Positions 7,898-20,054 of a stretch of 51,036 nt of DNA are shown piece after piece. The notes under the pieces are model-generated. The model ran no database searches, was not told the origin of the DNA, and saw nothing but the letters and a program-made list of their open reading frames with translations. Position numbers and translations under genes: made by a program. Position 1 is the stretch's first letter; every line of letters starts with the position of its first letter. Source of the DNA: Candidatus Jordarchaeia archaeon (lineage in GTDB: Archaea > Asgardarchaeota > Jordiarchaeia > Jordiarchaeales > Jordiarchaeaceae); NCBI GenBank assembly GCA_029856435.1, contig JAHQXB010000035.1, positions 1-51,036 of the forward strand, in the 5' to 3' direction.

Positions 7898-8428
7898 CTA
7901 AAAATCAATGCCTTTTCTGGCTTGTAATCCTTGGGTTACAAAGGGATGCTTTATCATTTTCATCTCGGTGACTAGGTCTGCCATTTCCAGTAGTTTAGGA
8001 TGCATGTACCTGCCTGTGAGAATAACTTCTTGGTGTGGTGGCTTAGCCTTCAATATCTCTATTACATCTTTTACGTTTATTAATTCCATCTCTATAGCCA
8101 CGCCTACCTCGTCAAGTATCAGGATGTCGTACTCTCCCTCCTCAATTGTCTTTTTTGCCAGTGCTAAGGCCTTTTTAGCTTCTTCTATGTCTACTTTTTC
8201 GGGTTCGGCAATTATTTCCGGTCTTCCAAACTGGGTTATTGTGAGATTGGGCCAGTTCTTAGCGGCTTTTATCTCTCCATACTTCACTTCTCCCTTCATA
8301 AATTGAATCATGTGTACTTTGAACCCATGCCCTGTTGCTCTAAAGGCTAATCCCAGTGCAGCTGTAGTCTTACCTTTTCCCGTTCCGTAGTAAACTTGGA
8401 TGAGCCCCCTCGTTAACCTTTGACTCAT
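7898..8428 (-). CDS. cobO: Cob(I)alamin adenosyltransferase, CobO/BtuR type
   Basis: GLIQVYYGTGKGKTTAALGLAFRA.GHG, IQFMKG, ILDEV, EVILTGR, ADLVTEM..IKHP, ARKGIDF. Confidence 0.93.
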   Translation of the reverse strand: MSQRLTRGLIQVYYGTGKGKTTAALGLAFRATGHGFKVHMIQFMKGEVKYGEIKAAKNWPNLTITQFGRPEIIAEPEKVDIEEAKKALALAKKTIEEGEYDILILDEVGVAIEMELINVKDVIEILKAKPPHQEVILTGRYMHPKLLEMADLVTEMKMIKHPFVTQGLQARKGIDF

Positions 8429-8438
8429 TTTTACTCAC

Positions 8439-9413
8439 TTACTCCTCAAATTTTTTGATAAGCGGTTGAATAAGTTTATTTGCGGCAGAGTAGATATTCT
8501 CTTCTTTTGAATAGACCTTTTCTACAAGATTTTTAATTTCTCTATCTTCTTTAAGAAACTTGGAAACGTATTCTTCTACAATCTGCAGCACAATTTCCTT
8601 AATCTTCTTCTCGATGTGGTTTTTCCGTCTCTCCTCAAGTACACCAGTTAGTTCAATATGCTTCCTGTGTTTCTCGATAGACTCCAAAAGTTCTCGGATT
8701 CCCACACCCTCAGTAGCTATAGTGCAGAGAACAGGTGGACGCCAACCAGTTTGCCGAGTGTAAGAATCCAGCGCCAACTCTAATTGAAGTGCCAGTTTGT
8801 CTCCATCCATATCCGCCTTGTTTACTACCAGTATATCCCCAATTTCCATGATTCCCGCCTTCTGAGCTTGTATGGAATCGCCAGCTCCCGGTGTAAATAC
8901 GCAGATTATAGTATCTGCAATTTTCATAATGTCGACTTCGGCTTGCCCCGCCCCCACAGTTTCTATGAGTATATAGTCCTTACCGTAAGCGTCAAATACA
9001 GCAGCAATGTCATAAGTGGCCTTGGAAAGCCCTCCCGAAATCCCCCTAGATGCCACGCTTCGAATGAATATGTCAGGGTCAGAAACAATTTCCCTCATTC
9101 TAACCCTATCCCCTAGGAAGGCTCCTCCTGAGAAGGGGCTGGAGGGATCAATGGAAATTATACCAACGGTCTTTCCCCTATTTCTCATCTCTTGAGCTAA
9201 CTTAGAAATAAGGGTGCTTTTTCCGCTGCCCGGAGACCCAGTTACACCAATGATATAAGCCTTTCCCGTATTTTTATATATGATGTCAAAAATTTCCTTA
9301 GCCTTATCAGGCTCGTTCTCCACGATCGTAATAATTTTTGCAAGCGCGATGCGGTCTTTCTCTATAAACTTTGAGACAAGTACCTGTATACTATCTTCCC
9401 TGCGCATTCTCAA
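8439..9413 (-). CDS. meaB: Methylmalonyl-CoA mutase-associated GTPase MeaB/ArgK
   Basis: IGVTGSPGSGKSTL, IDPSSPFSGGAFLGDRVRM, IETVGAGQAE, GDSIQAQKAGIMEIGD, VNKAD. Confidence 0.93.
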   Translation of the reverse strand: MRMRREDSIQVLVSKFIEKDRIALAKIITIVENEPDKAKEIFDIIYKNTGKAYIIGVTGSPGSGKSTLISKLAQEMRNRGKTVGIISIDPSSPFSGGAFLGDRVRMREIVSDPDIFIRSVASRGISGGLSKATYDIAAVFDAYGKDYILIETVGAGQAEVDIMKIADTIICVFTPGAGDSIQAQKAGIMEIGDILVVNKADMDGDKLALQLELALDSYTRQTGWRPPVLCTIATEGVGIRELLESIEKHRKHIELTGVLEERRKNHIEKKIKEIVLQIVEEYVSKFLKEDREIKNLVEKVYSKEENIYSAANKLIQPLIKKFEE

Positions 9414-9713: not shown

Positions 9714-10130
9714 CTAAAAGTAGAAGTGAATATTGAGAGGATACTCTGCACATTTTGGGGTTTTTTTCTCCAGCTCTTTCAGAAGCAAATAGGTTTCAGG
9801 GTAGGCGTTTAGATGTCTAATTTCATCTATCTTGAACCATTTATGTTCCTTGGTGCCTTCGGTTAACCTTTTCACTATTTTGGCTTTAAATACAAAAAAT
9901 AGGTGATAGTCTTCCTCCTTCTTTAATTCGTAAACTCTAGCCAAACTGTCAATCTCTATTAGGTATCCTGTTTCCTCTTTTATTTCTCTCTCCGCAGCTT
10001 CTATCACTCTTTCACCTTTCTCCACCTTTCCGCCAGGAATCGCCCATACTCCGTTATCGTTCACCAGAAGTGTCCTGCCCCTATTGTCCCTGAGAATCAC
10101 AGTAGCAACCACCACAACCATTATTAACAA
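9714..10130 (-). CDS. NUDIX hydrolase
   Basis: Nudix box [23 protein letters not shown]. Confidence 0.9.
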
Positions 10131-10237: not shown

Positions 10238-11179
10238 TTGCAGTATGATGTGATAATAGTAGGAGCGGGGCCGGCTGGGCTCTCCGCCGCCGCGTTTGCC
10301 GCGAGGCGAAAACTAAAAACTCTGGTCTTGGAGGCAACCAATAAAGTTGGTGGAAAACCAGTAAACGTGTATGGAACTAAAATAGTGGATGACTTTATAG
10401 GTTTCCCAGACGGGGTAAAAGGAAAAGAGGTGGGGGAAGCCCTGCTCAGACAAGCACAAAAATTTGGAGCAGAAATTAAATGCGAATCAAGGGTTTCCAA
10501 GGTTTCAATAGAAAATAATGATAAACTGGTAAGCACAGATGATGGGAGAACCTACAAAGCCAAAGCGGTAATAATAGCCACCGGTTCACACTCCAAAAGT
10601 TTCGTGGGTGGTATCGAAGGGGAGACAGAGTTCAAAAACAAGGGTGTAAGCTACGAACTTCAAAACCCTAACGAAATGAAGGATAAAATAGTATTTGTTG
10701 TGGGCGGAGGAGAAACAGCTGTAGAAACCGCCATCACCTTAAAAGACATAGCGAAACAGGTTTACCTTGTACACAGACGCGACTCATTTAGAGCGGATGA
10801 AATACTGGTGGAACAATTAAAAAAAAGCAAAATAAACATATTGACTAACTCTAGATTGCAAAAAATCCACGGAGACGATAAAGTAACAGGAGTAACCATA
10901 TACAACGATGCAACTAAGAAAGAAATAGAAATGAAGGCTGACCAAGTCATATTTTGCTTCGGAACAGTGCCGGCAAGCGAAATGCTAAAAGACCTAAACG
11001 TGAAAGTCGACGAAAAAGGCTTAATAATGGTCGACTGTGACCAAAAAACTAATGTAGAGGGAATTTTCGCTGCAGGAGATGTAGCAGGCGGAGCTATGAG
11101 AATATCGACCGCCATAGGAGAAGGCGTAAAAGCCGCTCTCAACGCCTATAAATACATAAAACAACCCTACTGGGCCTAG
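10238..11179 (+). CDS. TrxR-fold FAD/NADPH oxidoreductase lacking CxxC (ferredoxin-NADP+ reductase/YumC-like)
   Basis: GAGPAG, IIATG, GGGETA, HRRDSFRA, FAAGD; GVSYELQN where TrxR has GVSYCxxC. Confidence 0.8.
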   Translation: MQYDVIIVGAGPAGLSAAAFAARRKLKTLVLEATNKVGGKPVNVYGTKIVDDFIGFPDGVKGKEVGEALLRQAQKFGAEIKCESRVSKVSIENNDKLVSTDDGRTYKAKAVIIATGSHSKSFVGGIEGETEFKNKGVSYELQNPNEMKDKIVFVVGGGETAVETAITLKDIAKQVYLVHRRDSFRADEILVEQLKKSKINILTNSRLQKIHGDDKVTGVTIYNDATKKEIEMKADQVIFCFGTVPASEMLKDLNVKVDEKGLIMVDCDQKTNVEGIFAAGDVAGGAMRISTAIGEGVKAALNAYKYIKQPYWA

Positions 11180-11357: not shown

Positions 11358-12302
11358 TCATTTGGATGTACCATACCAACCGCCTCTAATGTAAAGGTAG
11401 GCGTTTACCGCCGCCCTAGCGCCCTCACCGACAGCAGTGGCGATCTGAAAAATGCCTCCAGTAACGTCTCCCGCCGCAAATATTCCTTCAATATTTGTTT
11501 TCTGTTCCCTATCTACTACTATGTATCCTCCTTCATCCAGTTTGACTCCTGCCTCCTTAGCTAAATCGCTGACTGGCCTGTAGCCCACCGCTATGAAAAC
11601 GGCATCCACATCCAATAAAGTCTCCTCCCCTGTTTTGTTATTAATGAGTCGAATTTTCTTCACTACCTTATTGCCTTCGATACTCTTTACTTCAGTATTC
11701 CAGTGAAACTTAACTCCCCTCTCCGTCAAAGCTCTCTTATAGTAAGCTTCAGCTCGCAAATCATCCCTCCTGTGAACCAAATGTACTTCCCCGGCAACAT
11801 CACTCAAATATAGAGCCTCAGAACAGGCTGTATTGCCACCGCCAACCACAAGCACTCTTCTACCCTTAAACAAGGGTCCATCGCAAGTTGCACAATAACT
11901 GACTCCTCTACCACTAAATTGTTCTTCTCCTGGCACCCCAAGCTTCATATGCTCACGCCCCGTGGCAATTATAACTGCATCGGCTACGTATGTCTCTCTA
12001 TCCGATATAACCCTAACATGCTTTTCCCTCTTCTCTATTTTCCTAACTGGCTCTAAATCATGAATGTCGCATCCACATTCCTCAGCTTGCTTTCTCATAG
12101 CATCCATTAACTCCATTCCCCTAATTTTAACAAAACCAGGATAATTCTCAATAACAGCTGCCTCCGCGGCCTGGCCGCCACTAACTTTAGCTTCCAAAAC
12201 CACTGCATTTAAACCAAACCTAGCCGCATAAATTCCAGCGCTCAATCCCGCAGGCCCAGCGCCAATAATCACCAACTGCTTTTCAACTGGCAAAATAAAC
12301 AC
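11358..12302 (-). CDS. trxB: Thioredoxin-disulfide reductase
   Basis: GAGPAG, GVSYCATCDG, GGGNTA, HRRDDLRA, FAAGD. Confidence 0.93.
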   Translation of the reverse strand: MFILPVEKQLVIIGAGPAGLSAGIYAARFGLNAVVLEAKVSGGQAAEAAVIENYPGFVKIRGMELMDAMRKQAEECGCDIHDLEPVRKIEKREKHVRVISDRETYVADAVIIATGREHMKLGVPGEEQFSGRGVSYCATCDGPLFKGRRVLVVGGGNTACSEALYLSDVAGEVHLVHRRDDLRAEAYYKRALTERGVKFHWNTEVKSIEGNKVVKKIRLINNKTGEETLLDVDAVFIAVGYRPVSDLAKEAGVKLDEGGYIVVDREQKTNIEGIFAAGDVTGGIFQIATAVGEGARAAVNAYLYIRGGWYGTSK

Positions 12303-12538: not shown

Positions 12539-12687
12539 TTTAACGCTTAAAAAACAAAAAATAACTTTCTATCACAAAAAGCTTAGCAAATAATATATAT
12601 CTAAAAACATAGTAAATTATGTAAAGCCACCAAAAATATGAGGAAAAAGGAGAAAATAGCAAAATTCGCAATAGGGGCAGAGTGGAT

Positions 12688-14415
12688 ATGGCACCCAAGC
12701 ATGAAGAATATGCATTCAAAATTGTCTGTATTGGGGATGGTGGTGTGGGTAAGACCAGCCTAATAGTTAGGCTAACCGAGAATAGGTTCTCAGAAGACTA
12801 CAAAATGACTTTAGGAACTTCATTTGCCGCTCATACCATAAATATCGAGGATAATATTGTGACTTTACAGATCTGGGATCTTGGAGGTCAGCCCTCCTTC
12901 AGTCACTTGAGGTCGTTTTTCTATGCTGGAGCTAAGGGGGCTGTGATTGTTTTTGACTTGACAGATATTAAATCTTTTCAGAATATTACAACATGGTATA
13001 AAGAGTTGCGTAGCGTTTGCGGTGATGTGCCCATTGTTTTGATCGGCAATAAGAATGATTTGGCTAGCAATCGTGTTGTTTCTAGGCAAGAGGCGGAGAT
13101 GCTAGCCAGAAGCTTGGGCGCGCCTTATGTTGAGACCAGTGCTAAAACCGGTGACAAGGTTAATTTGGCTTTTCAGAGCATTTCAAGGCGTTTGTTAGGT
13201 ATCGAAGAAAAGTTACCTATGGTAAAGGGTGTGGTGGTTCCAGAGGTTAAGAGTAAGCTTCTGCAGTTTATTGACAGTAGAAGAGACTATCTCCTAAATT
13301 TGCTGGGAGATCTAATTTCCGCACGCTCTGTTAATCCTCCAGGAAATGAGAAGACTGCTGCGGATGTTGTTCAAGGCGAGTTGTATAGAATTGGGATGCA
13401 AACTGAATCTTACGAGAAGGAGAGTGGGCGGACCAACGTTGTAGGCTACGTGGAGAAGGGTAACTCTCCCACTTTAATGATTATTACCCATCTGGATGTG
13501 GTGCCTGCAGGTGACGGATGGATTTATGATCCGTTTAAAGCTACTCCCACTAATGGTAGGATTGTGGGTAGGGGTGCTGTTGATGATAAGGGACCTATGG
13601 CTTCTGTTCTCCTGGCTATTCAAGCGCTTAAGGAGTTTAATTTCCCCATTCGGGGACGCTTGTTGTTTGTGGCCGTGGCAGATGAGGAAACTGGAAATGA
13701 GCTGGGCATAAAGTATCTTTTAAACGAAAAGGGCTTAACAGCTGATTATGCTCTGGTGGCTGAGCAAACTAGGTGTGAGGCAGTGGAGATTGCAGAAAAG
13801 GGCCGTTTATGGGCTAGGCTGAAGAGTACTGGTGCACAGGGTCACGGTAGCATGCCGGTGAAGGGTGCGAATGCAATTGTAAATCTCTCAAAGGTTTTGG
13901 CCCGCATAGAAAACCTGAAAATGTCTTACACTGAACATCCTCTGCTCGGAGCTCCAACCATAAATGTAGGAACAATAAAGGGTGGGGTGGCTACGAATGT
14001 GATTCCTGCTTCCGCCGAAGCCACAGTGGATATTAGATATCTACCCTCCCAAGATTTGAGGCAGATAATCAACGAGTTACGCGAATTAGTGAGGAGCGTC
14101 CAGAGAGAGAACCCTGGACTAGAGGTGGCTATAGAGCCCATAGCTTCGGATCCCCCTACAGAAGTTTCTCCCGAAGACCCCGTTGTCAGAGCACTGGTGA
14201 GTGTAATAAGGGAGGTGACGGGAAGCCAGCCGAAGCTAATTGGGATAGGAGGCGCCACAGTAGCGAAGCACTGTATTTCCCACGGTATCCCCACCGCCGT
14301 TTTTGGACCGGGAGATCCCAAAGAGGCCCACGCCGCAAATGAGAGTGTGTCCATAGACAGTTTACTTACGGCAGCTAAAATTTACGCTCTAACTATATTA
14401 AACCTGCTCTCTTAA
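12688..14415 (+). CDS. Rab-like small GTPase fused to an M20 (ArgE/DapE-family) metallo-amidohydrolase
   Basis: G1 GDGGVGKTS, G2 TLG, G3 WDLGGQ, G4 NKND, G5 ETSAK; then THLDVV, GRGAVDDKG, DEE, AEQT, GHGS, AHAANE; a single uninterrupted frame. Confidence 0.9.
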   Translation: MAPKHEEYAFKIVCIGDGGVGKTSLIVRLTENRFSEDYKMTLGTSFAAHTINIEDNIVTLQIWDLGGQPSFSHLRSFFYAGAKGAVIVFDLTDIKSFQNITTWYKELRSVCGDVPIVLIGNKNDLASNRVVSRQEAEMLARSLGAPYVETSAKTGDKVNLAFQSISRRLLGIEEKLPMVKGVVVPEVKSKLLQFIDSRRDYLLNLLGDLISARSVNPPGNEKTAADVVQGELYRIGMQTESYEKESGRTNVVGYVEKGNSPTLMIITHLDVVPAGDGWIYDPFKATPTNGRIVGRGAVDDKGPMASVLLAIQALKEFNFPIRGRLLFVAVADEETGNELGIKYLLNEKGLTADYALVAEQTRCEAVEIAEKGRLWARLKSTGAQGHGSMPVKGANAIVNLSKVLARIENLKMSYTEHPLLGAPTINVGTIKGGVATNVIPASAEATVDIRYLPSQDLRQIINELRELVRSVQRENPGLEVAIEPIASDPPTEVSPEDPVVRALVSVIREVTGSQPKLIGIGGATVAKHCISHGIPTAVFGPGDPKEAHAANESVSIDSLLTAAKIYALTILNLLS

Positions 14416-14426
14416 AGTTCTAAGGT

Positions 14427-14870
14427 GTGGTTAAAACTTTGGTTGAATCGGAGAAATTTATTCGTTTTAGTGTTTCTCTCCCAGAAGGCCTACTTAAAGA
14501 ATTTGATAAGGTTACAGAGTCTCTTGGAATACAAGGTAGATCTGATGCGATACGCAAAGCAATGCGTGACTTCATAGTAAACTATACTTGGATGAATAAG
14601 CGTAAAGGTAATATGGTAGGCTCAATAACTATAATCTTGGATCATGACACCCCAGGAATAATGGATGAAATAACTGAGCTACAACACAAACATTTGGAAC
14701 TAATCGCTTCCTCTATGCATGTGCATTTAGACGAACGTGAATGTATGATTGTTCTGGCAGTAAGGGGAAAAGTGGAGGATGTTGAAAAACTCAACAATGA
14801 AATACTTGCCCTCAAGGGAGTCAAACTAGTAAAGTATACTGTGATGACTCCGGGAGCCGAATTGCCATAA
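14427..14870 (+). CDS. nikR: Nickel-responsive transcriptional regulator NikR
   Basis: RHH motif RFSVSLPEGLLKEFD...RSDAIRKAMRDF; metal ligands HKH...HVHLDERECM. Confidence 0.9.
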   Translation: MVKTLVESEKFIRFSVSLPEGLLKEFDKVTESLGIQGRSDAIRKAMRDFIVNYTWMNKRKGNMVGSITIILDHDTPGIMDEITELQHKHLELIASSMHVHLDERECMIVLAVRGKVEDVEKLNNEILALKGVKLVKYTVMTPGAELP

Positions 14871-15045: not shown

Positions 15046-16599
15046 TTGCACTTGGAGTTGGATGGTTATCTTGAATTAAGCGGCGTTCTTCCCAAGGAAG
15101 CCCAAAGCGAATTAGAAGCCTTCTTCGAGGAAGCCAACAAAAAAATACTTAAAAAAGGAGCGCCCAAAGGAAAAGAATCTGAAGGGGCTCAAGTAACCAA
15201 GTGGTCCCTCAAAGGCGACAAGATAGAACTGCGGATAAATAGTGGCAGATATGTTAGAGCACACACCGCGCTACTCAGGCTTTCCAATGCGCTATCCAAA
15301 ATCCTAGGATCGAAATATCATACAGGTATCCGCAAGTCTGTCGCCACCACTTACAAGATAGAAACTGAGCTTGAGAAAACGCCCTTGGAACCCATAACCC
15401 TACCCTTCACCAAGGAATTAACCATCAAGGATAAAACTGCCACTGTAATTATGGTGGAAATGGACGAAAGTGAACTCAAAAGAAACTACCCAGACCGCCT
15501 ACTGCGGCGTCTCGAAGAGAAAATTACAGCCCAATATGTCCATGGAAAGGCAGAGTATACACGCACCGTTGAAAGAAGCCACAAGGGTTTAGAAAAATAC
15601 AAGTTGAGAGAAGACCCTACAGAGACCGCGGTTAAATTAGGATGGGTTAAAGAGTTTCCGGGAGCAGGCATATGGCAGATACTGCCCCCCTATGCTGCGC
15701 TCATCAGAGCCATAGAAAACATGATCATTGACGACATCGCAAAGCCCCTAGGATTCCAAGAAGTTATGCTTCCCCGACTAATTCCACTAGACGTTGAGAT
15801 GAAAAAGGGTCACTTTGGAATAGCAAACGAGATAATATGGGTCTGCCCCCCAATATCACGAGACCCCAAAGAATTCGAAGAAATACTAGACTACGTGGAA
15901 ATAACTGGCACTCCGCCCGTAGAATTACTCCAGAAAAAACTTCGCCCCCCCATGTTTGGACTAGCATACGCCCAATGTGAACCCTTCTATGAACTATTCG
16001 CCCAAGAAATAGTAAACATAGAAGATCTTGAGAAAAACCCCATAAAATTCTACGACAAAAATGGGCCCACTTGGAGATGGGAAGGGGGAGGACTGAAAGG
16101 CCTAGAACGCCTAAACGAATTCCACAGAGTAGAATTCGTATACATGGCGCCACCCCAAAAATGCATAGAAATAAGAGACCAAGTACTCGAAAAAGCAAAA
16201 ACCATGGTAGACAAAGACTTAGATTTAGAATACCGAATAGACGCAACCACCGCCGTATACCTTGAACACGCCGGAATCGCCGAAGAACAAAAAGAGGAAG
16301 AATTCGTGAAAACCTACGACCTCACCGTGATACTCCCCTTCGAAACCAAAAGCAGACCTGAAGCAGAACTAGAAATCTCCAGCTTCCACGTACACACTGA
16401 CTTTTACGCCAAAAGATTCCACTTCCGAGACAAAACCCGTAAAACAGTATACACTGGATGCGTAGGAATGGGCCCATCCCGCTATGCATACGTAACCCTA
16501 ATAAGACATGGATTCAACTACGACGACTGGCCCCCGAAAATCAAAAAATACATTGGCAAAAAACTGCCCGAGGTCCCCAAAACAGTAACTTGGCCATAA
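15046..16599 (+). CDS. serS: Serine--tRNA ligase, methanogen-type (SerRS2)
   Basis: N-terminal SGRYVRAHTALLRL; LAYAQCEPFY; motif 2 WRWEGGG..GLERLNEFHRVE; motif 3 TGCVGMGPSRY; C-terminal TWP. Confidence 0.9.
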   Translation: MHLELDGYLELSGVLPKEAQSELEAFFEEANKKILKKGAPKGKESEGAQVTKWSLKGDKIELRINSGRYVRAHTALLRLSNALSKILGSKYHTGIRKSVATTYKIETELEKTPLEPITLPFTKELTIKDKTATVIMVEMDESELKRNYPDRLLRRLEEKITAQYVHGKAEYTRTVERSHKGLEKYKLREDPTETAVKLGWVKEFPGAGIWQILPPYAALIRAIENMIIDDIAKPLGFQEVMLPRLIPLDVEMKKGHFGIANEIIWVCPPISRDPKEFEEILDYVEITGTPPVELLQKKLRPPMFGLAYAQCEPFYELFAQEIVNIEDLEKNPIKFYDKNGPTWRWEGGGLKGLERLNEFHRVEFVYMAPPQKCIEIRDQVLEKAKTMVDKDLDLEYRIDATTAVYLEHAGIAEEQKEEEFVKTYDLTVILPFETKSRPEAELEISSFHVHTDFYAKRFHFRDKTRKTVYTGCVGMGPSRYAYVTLIRHGFNYDDWPPKIKKYIGKKLPEVPKTVTWP

Positions 16600-19625: not shown

Positions 19626-20054
19626 TTATCCTTCTGGCCATTGTCCCAGTTCTAGTATGAATCCGCATTTTTCTTGGGTATCTAGGTAGGCCCATTTTAC
19701 TCCGAAGATTTCTCCTCTGTCGAGGATTTTTACTCCTATTTTTTCTAGGTTTTTTAGTTCTTTTTCGATGTCTTTGCAGTGGTAGCTTACGTGGTGGAGT
19801 CCTTCTCCTTTTTGTTTGAGCCATTTAGAGTGTATTGTGTCTCCTTCTAGGGGCTGGATTAGCTCGATTTGTAGGTCTCCCTGCTGGTATATGCCAATTT
19901 TCACTTTGCCGCCTGGCACTTCTGTTTCTATTGTGGGGAATGGCCCTATTCCCAGTTTTTCGAGGAATTTTGCGGTTTTTTCCATGTCTTTTACTACTAT
20001 TCCTAGTTGGCTGATTTTGTAGTCTGTTACTCTCTCGCTTGGTGTGGGTTCCAC
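19626..20054 (-). CDS. VOC-family protein (methylmalonyl-CoA epimerase-like)
   Basis: QLGIVVKD, IELIQP, GEGLHHVSY, GFILEL. Confidence 0.8.
   Translation of the reverse strand: MEPTPSERVTDYKISQLGIVVKDMEKTAKFLEKLGIGPFPTIETEVPGGKVKIGIYQQGDLQIELIQPLEGDTIHSKWLKQKGEGLHHVSYHCKDIEKELKNLEKIGVKILDRGEIFGVKWAYLDTQEKCGFILELGQWPEG

Follow-up and report, generated by a model that had tools for sequence, protein, structure and literature searches.

Small GTPases fused to dimerising or effector modules are already known. Rag/Gtr proteins, GTPases linked to amino-acid status, join a G domain to a C-terminal roadblock dimerisation domain, and Roco proteins are built on a Roc-COR arrangement, often with an added kinase. 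In Asgard archaea, the Rab-like GTPases known so far are single-domain proteins or fusions with longin or roadblock domains (Tran et al. 2024, PMC10933270). According to Liu et al. (bioRxiv 10.1101/2020.10.19.343400), most multidomain eukaryotic signature proteins (ESPs) of these archaea combine domains in ways not found in eukaryotes, are limited to small parts of the Asgard group and in some cases contain domains typical of prokaryotes. The gene described here lies at positions 12688-14415 of a 51,036-nucleotide stretch of DNA (the window) from a Candidatus Jordarchaeia archaeon (assembly GCA_029856435.1, contig JAHQXB010000035.1). It is a genuine single gene, old and constrained, in which a tether of about 15 residues links a Rab-like GTPase to a complete ArgE/DapE-type M20 metallohydrolase with its lid domain.

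This protein matches the pattern of the multidomain ESPs, and the GTPase-M20 combination does not figure among the examples in the accessible part of Liu et al. An earlier note on this DNA, made from the sequence alone, took the architecture as possibly undescribed, and the literature search found no paper describing a GTPase-M20 fusion; neither the Rab-like-M20 combination nor its drift to a constrained pseudoenzyme was found in the searchable literature. Along its entire length the G domain can be aligned with Asgard Rab-like proteins (7EZB) and with Rab21 and Rab1, sharing the G1-G5 boxes, the 'WDL.GQP' switch II and the catalytic Gln. Unlike the known Asgard Rab-like proteins, it is followed by a 400-residue C-terminal metallohydrolase and has no free C-terminal tail. 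The M20 half shares the catalytic and lid fold, the five metal ligands, the general-base Glu and the lid His of DapE (7UOI, 5VO3) and Escherichia coli ArgE (7RSF), but no solved or characterised M20 enzyme carries an N-terminal GTPase. The joining of a Ras-superfamily G domain to a C-terminal dimerising and/or regulated-output module recalls Rag/Gtr and Roco proteins. In contrast to these, the fusion lacks roadblock, longin and COR domains; what is appended has the fold of a metabolic enzyme, and the G domain is Rab-like rather than of the Rag or Roc type. The features of the gene, all on the forward strand, are as follows.

12688..14415 (+): coding sequence of the GTPase/M20 fusion, 575 codons plus stop; full-length orthologues are 50-97% identical
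12718..13194 (+): Rab-like small GTPase domain, residues 11-169; Pfam Ras PF00071, 176 bits (cut-off 21.6), E 5.5e-52
12733-12759 (+): G1 box, GDGGVGKTS, read in the DNA
T41 (+): G2 box, read in the sequence
12874-12891 (+): G3 box, WDLGGQ, with the catalytic Gln (Gln68), read in the DNA
13048-13059 (+): G4 box, NKND, read in the DNA
13138-13146 (+): G5 box, SAK, read in the DNA
13195..13245 (+): short flexible tether, residues 170-186, starting at the fusion-specific hinge Gly171
13246..13788 (+): M20 catalytic domain, first part, residues 187-367, from Pfam, NCBIfam and structure alignment
13489-13497 (+): H268/D270, aligned to 7UOI and 7RSF
13582-13584 (+): D299, aligned to 7UOI and 7RSF
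13684-13689 (+): E333/E334, aligned to 7UOI and 7RSF
13762-13764 (+): E359, the 'GEPT' Glu, aligned to 7UOI and 7RSF
13789..14109 (+): M20 lid/dimerisation domain, residues 368-474; M20_dimer PF07687, 89.3 bits (cut-off 21)
13843-13845 (+): lid His386, aligned to the equivalent His in the lids of DapE and ArgE
14110..14412 (+): M20 catalytic domain, second part, residues 475-575, with H548 (14329-14331) and E552

The open reading frame (ORF) listing and translation give a single ORF of 575 amino acids that begins at the ATG at 12688 and contains no internal stops. A GTG at 12682 is an alternative start; the ATG is favoured because the orthologues begin M-x-P-K. The protein ends in ...LNLLS. 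The earlier note had described one ORF for a Rab-like GTPase and an M20 enzyme, with five intact G-boxes, all M20 metal ligands, no stop between the domains and no lipidation tail. Each of these points holds: the architecture is recovered from the translation, the Pfam and NCBIfam matches and the motifs on the DNA, with all five boxes located there; the ligands align to those of 7UOI and 7RSF; the frame is open; and the C-terminus has no Cys tail. Both halves look functional in the window genome.

The nearest solved relatives of the G domain are a Thorarchaeota Rab (7EZB, E 2.5e-42) and Rab21 and Rab1 (1e-38 to 1e-39), and the label 'Rab-like' rests on this best-hit similarity. The C-terminal Cys prenylation motif of eukaryotic Rab proteins is absent, and the M20 domain occupies the position after the G domain. 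The Pfam matches do not place the protein in other GTPase families that carry additional domains. The Roc model overlaps the Ras match only, with no COR, LRR or kinase domain; Gtr1_RagA reaches 19.7 bits (below its cut-off of 22), with no roadblock or longin domain; and there is no match of the cobW, HypB, UreG or MeaB type that would indicate a G3E metallochaperone. The window genome encodes about nine stand-alone Rab-like paralogues with 37-49% identity. Just two G-domain positions, L74 and G171, are invariant in the fusions yet rare in stand-alone Rab-like paralogues, and no dedicated docking surface is obvious on the G domain.

The M20 half is matched by Peptidase_M20 (PF01546, residues 265-571, 121.6 bits, cut-off 24.6) and by the NCBIfam model TIGR01910, 'ArgE/DapE family deacylase' (residues 204-565, 295.9 bits against a cut-off of 217.6). 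Alignment with DapE (7UOI) and ArgE (7RSF) assigns the canonical roles to the metal ligands H268, D299, E334, E359 and H548, the general base E333 and the lid His H386. Unlike DapE and ArgE themselves, to which it is only 25-29% identical, this half stands outside any lysine or arginine operon and falls below every enzyme-specific equivalog cut-off (DapE, ArgE, PepV, YgeY and Sapep), with PRK13983 at 247.5 against 333, TIGR01892 (ArgE) at 192 against 298 and TIGR01246 (DapE) at 148 against 362. A feature search of the ESM Atlas returned ordinary M20 clusters only, at 0.77, under the lead level. About ten further, unfused M20 paralogues are present in the window genome; housekeeping deacylase roles therefore need not depend on the fusion gene. 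The neighbours of the nearest unfused M20 relatives (P0019 and P0276), namely a beta-lactamase fold protein, PGA_cap and an ABC transporter, are uninformative on the substrate.

The fusion is restricted to a small part of the Asgard archaea. A profile of all fusion types found it in 14 of 400 Asgard genomes and nowhere else: in six of six genomes of family f1, which includes the window genome, five of five of f2 and three of three of f26. Within the class Jordarchaeia the frame is uninterrupted in all 11 species-level genomes, which cover two families and three genera and include one single-contig (closed) genome; thus the ten other genomes of the class show neither a stop nor a frameshift between the domains, an interruption that the earlier note would have taken as evidence against its proposal. 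A search of the phylum with a single protein, which scored three candidates per genome, missed f26, and absences from such searches are lower bounds. In an exhaustive search of representatives, one extra and more distant fusion was recovered (P0123, 607 amino acids, 39% identity), the other long matches being tandem Ras repeats. The housekeeping gene beside P0123 is 78-88% identical to those of three f26 genomes, all of which carry the fusion. A profile search of an index of 5.8 billion proteins revealed no further fusion lineage, and the closest unfused M20 protein (47% identity) belongs to a fourth family. The earlier note had counted many annotated examples as evidence against its proposal, and this applies weakly: about 16 full-length clusters (575-602 amino acids) exist in a 90%-identity protein index, but every one is named only 'ArgE/DapE family deacylase'. 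Their source assemblies are labelled Freyrarchaeum, Freyarchaeota, Jordarchaeales or Jordarchaeia, names treated as synonyms of Jordarchaeia (bioRxiv 10.1101/2024.02.28.582541).

The fusions fall into group A (the window's genus), group B (the sister family) and group C (the fusions of family f26, outside the class), and these groups differ in the state of the M20 active site. Group A keeps every catalytic residue. In group B the 'GEPT' ligand E359 is replaced by G in all members, and single members have also changed E333 to G or H386 to Y. Group C carries D299 to C, EE to GL, E359 to S and H548 to N, all fixed in four species-level genomes. The G1-G5 boxes and Gln68 are invariant across the fused relatives of all three groups. 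Identity between groups A and B is 63% in the G domain and 49% in the M20 domain, and between A and C it is 50% and 33%, respectively.

Ratios of nonsynonymous to synonymous substitution rates (dN/dS) were estimated per domain by the Nei-Gojobori method. Both halves of group A are under equally strong purifying selection (G domain 0.05-0.09, M20 0.04-0.08). In group B the M20 half changes at roughly double the rate of the G domain (0.08-0.16 against 0.03-0.05). In group C the values are 0.03-0.09 for the G domain and 0.03-0.07 for the M20 half, which is thus strongly constrained despite its dead site, with looser linkers. Taken with the residue pattern, these ratios indicate that the M20 fold is kept by selection even where normal M20 catalysis is impossible, and that the switch is the constant element.

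The dead M20 site of group C (L006:1167-2990 and L030-L032) contains three new Cys residues beside a retained H-H-D. Two of them replace the V-D of the V-D-D motif and the third adjoins the former last His; all are fixed in the four genomes and strongly constrained. This Cys/His cluster may be a new metal or redox site.

The two halves are joined by a tether whose dN/dS (0.2-0.35) exceeds that of the domains (about 0.05), with G171 invariant in the fusions and absent from the stand-alone paralogues. An AlphaFold2 (AF2) model built on a 63-row alignment has a predicted template modelling score (pTM) of 0.69. Its predicted local distance difference test (pLDDT) values are above 90 in both domains and below 50 at residues 175-182, which indicates two rigid bodies joined by a short flexible tether. 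Foldseek matched only the M20 part of this model, with DapE and ArgE as the best hits (closed DapE 5VO3, TM 0.87 on the target), and found no solved chain spanning both halves. A complex prediction of the G domain against an M20 dimer, with a separate alignment for each, gave a score of 0.02 (mark 0.32) and counts neither way on docking. Group C proteins have an insert of about 30 residues in the linker, rich in Pro, Ala and Glu.

The arrangement preferred here, about as likely as not, is one in which the M20 body acts as the dimerising and/or ligand-binding partner of the GTP switch within an M20-lid homodimer, with catalysis retained in the window genus. The conserved function of the family would be centred on the GTPase, and the M20 body would be its covalent partner. 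The protein would form a homodimer through the M20 lid, as DapE and ArgE do, so that every particle would bear two GTP switches, each flexibly tethered; the conserved lid domain and lid His386 count for such a dimer, and in the work on DapE 5VO3 the lid His of the partner subunit reportedly takes part in catalysis. The M20 body would be a dimerisation platform, much as a roadblock dimerises Rag GTPases or COR dimerises Roco proteins, and probably also a pocket for an N-acyl-amino acid or a small peptide, which in the window lineage it most likely still hydrolyses. Ligand binding or turnover and the nucleotide state of the switch could then be coupled in one molecule. The earlier note had offered two alternatives, a GTP-switched deacylase and a GTPase that the enzyme keeps dimeric. 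The comparative data (the lost 'GEPT' Glu of group B, the replaced yet constrained site of group C and the invariant G boxes) favour the second over the first. Nucleotide control of catalysis, like the link to amino-acid status that the note also suggested, is speculative.

The genes around the fusion bear both on its function and on its origin.

14427..14870 (+): nikR-like gene, 11 nucleotides downstream of the fusion and co-directional; Pfam NikR_C, a nickel-binding domain (89.6 bits), plus RHH_1
10238-11179 (+), 11358-12302 (-) and 9714-10130 (-): TrxR-like paralogues and NUDIX gene, upstream of the fusion; neighbourhood shared by groups A and B
15046-16599 (+): serS, of an unusual archaeal type with a tRNA_bind_4 N-terminal domain

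The nikR-like gene is probably in the same transcription unit as the fusion; it is treated as no more than a neighbour. It follows the fusion by about 11-20 nucleotides at every one of the six group A loci, and no B or C locus has it. The tie between nikR adjacency and an intact metal site is only suggestive, coming from a single lineage that does not provide independent evidence. The other neighbours include the seryl-tRNA synthetase gene serS and leuS; seryl-tRNA synthetases of the tRNA_bind_4 type are the form known from methanogens. Further away, a corrinoid adenosyltransferase gene (CobA/BtuR) and a MeaB-type GTPase gene lie within 7898-9413 (-), with MeaB at 8439-9413, and a glyoxalase-fold gene, possibly methylmalonyl-CoA epimerase-like, is found at 19626-20054 (-). 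These genes point to a nearby B12-dependent mutase pathway. Stand-alone Ras-family genes occur within about 1.2 kb of the fusion at a group B locus (L001:8958-9494) and a group C locus (L006:47-862), and none adjoins it in the window.

Groups A and B share the synteny upstream of the fusion, with two TrxR-like genes and the NUDIX gene (compared at loci L001 and L003), and together form a clade that is supported at 99 in the M20 tree and at 98 in the G-domain tree. The fusions of A and B are orthologous on the strength of this common synteny and of the clade support on both trees. Group C sits on a long branch in the M20 tree, and in the G-domain tree it joins A and B together with one stand-alone paralogue from the window genome. 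Monophyly of all fusions was not rejected by the approximately unbiased (AU) test (p 0.46 and 0.17).

That stand-alone paralogue (G000:C94:1694-2212, +, locus L015, 48% identity) lies within the fusion G-domain clade beside group C and could descend from the donor gene or have arisen by secondary fission. Another Rab-like paralogue, L033 (G298:C10:4162-4689), found in a group C genome, contains a single in-frame TGA, which may mark a pseudogene, a sequencing error or recoding.

Several points weigh against a family centred on the switch. The dimerisation, GTPase and hydrolase activities on which it relies are predicted here from the protein sequence. Neither the window locus nor the loci of the nearest unfused relatives yielded a partner, a substrate or an informative operon context. 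The common origin of group C with A and B is only not rejected, and group C may represent an independent fusion. In group A the active site is perfectly conserved and constrained like the G domain, and catalysis may well be the main function there. The catalytic loss in B and C could, moreover, be a secondary change of function with little bearing on group A.

The foremost rival is a GTP-gated enzyme, in which M20 catalysis (N-acyl amino acid deacylation or dipeptide hydrolysis) would be the main activity, the Rab-like domain would act as an allosteric on/off switch, opening or blocking the active site or the motion of the lid with its nucleotide state, and groups B and C would be later derivatives. 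The window genus, where all catalytic residues and the lid His are intact under a dN/dS of 0.04-0.08, fits this explanation, as do the very short tether (170-186), which keeps the G domain close enough to reach the catalytic domain, and the nikR-like metal regulator, which immediately follows the fusion in just the one lineage whose metal site is intact. However, a perfect G domain is kept where metal ligands have been lost (group B) or the site is dead (group C), the G domain displays no fusion-specific surface beyond L74 and G171, and the AF2 model, with its pTM of 0.69 and poorly predicted linker, has no confident packing between the domains. A gated enzyme is accordingly considered possible but doubtful.

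The preferred dimerising-partner arrangement can be extended to a metabolite sensor built on a eukaryote-type switch, an unlikely form of it. The M20 pocket would bind, and in the window genus cleave, an N-acyl amino acid or small peptide, and its occupancy or the closure of the lid would set the nucleotide state or the pairing of the tethered Rab-like domains. If true, the protein would parallel, within a single polypeptide, the sensing of amino acids by way of Rag-type GTPases, and the pseudoenzyme lineages would be pure sensors.

It is equally improbable that the Rab-like domain is a recruitment module, a tag that would bind a membrane or partner according to its GTP state and bring the M20 body to that site without direct communication between the domains. 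The G domain is a typical Asgard Rab-like one with conserved switches I and II, the tether is flexible, and the closest relatives are stand-alone Rab-like paralogues, one of them inside the fusion clade. Nevertheless, the protein has no lipid anchor or amphipathic N-terminus, its C-terminus being filled by the M20 body; the compared loci of groups A, B and C have no conserved candidate-partner neighbour in common; and such a role leaves unexplained why the M20 fold persists after the loss of catalysis.

Metal delivery, with a G domain that would load or exchange the M20 metal in the manner of a G3E metallochaperone, alongside the nikR-like neighbour, is very hard to credit: a metalloenzyme-GTPase fusion followed by nikR in group A is what suggests it, but the domain belongs to the Ras superfamily and not to G3E/SIMIBI, there is neither a cobW, HypB or UreG match nor a metal-binding CxCC motif, and lineages that have lost the metal site still carry the fusion, with nikR adjacency limited to one lineage. 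An artefact, either two genes merged by a sequencing or assembly error or a conserved internal start yielding a separate M20 protein, has a negligible chance of being the explanation: an ATG (Met178, nucleotide 13219) does lie precisely at the domain boundary, but a frameshift or missed stop is rejected by the same open frame in 14 independently assembled genomes, one of them closed, a conserved internal start is unlikely since the orthologues do not conserve Met178, and the 392-residue 'unfused' close match P0010 is flagged as partial, on a 2.7-kb contig.

For annotation, the finding means that the public name 'ArgE/DapE family deacylase' conceals a signalling domain. For the family, the groups provide a natural series from a predicted active enzyme (A), through one lost ligand (B), to a fixed and constrained pseudoenzyme (C), a comparison by which a catalytic role could be told apart from one in scaffolding or sensing. 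Dozens of small GTPases resembling those of eukaryotes are encoded by Asgard archaea, and the targets of these switches are almost unknown. Here the partner is covalent and comes from a well-understood enzyme family, so that communication between an Asgard Rab-like switch and its effector can be tested simply in vitro.

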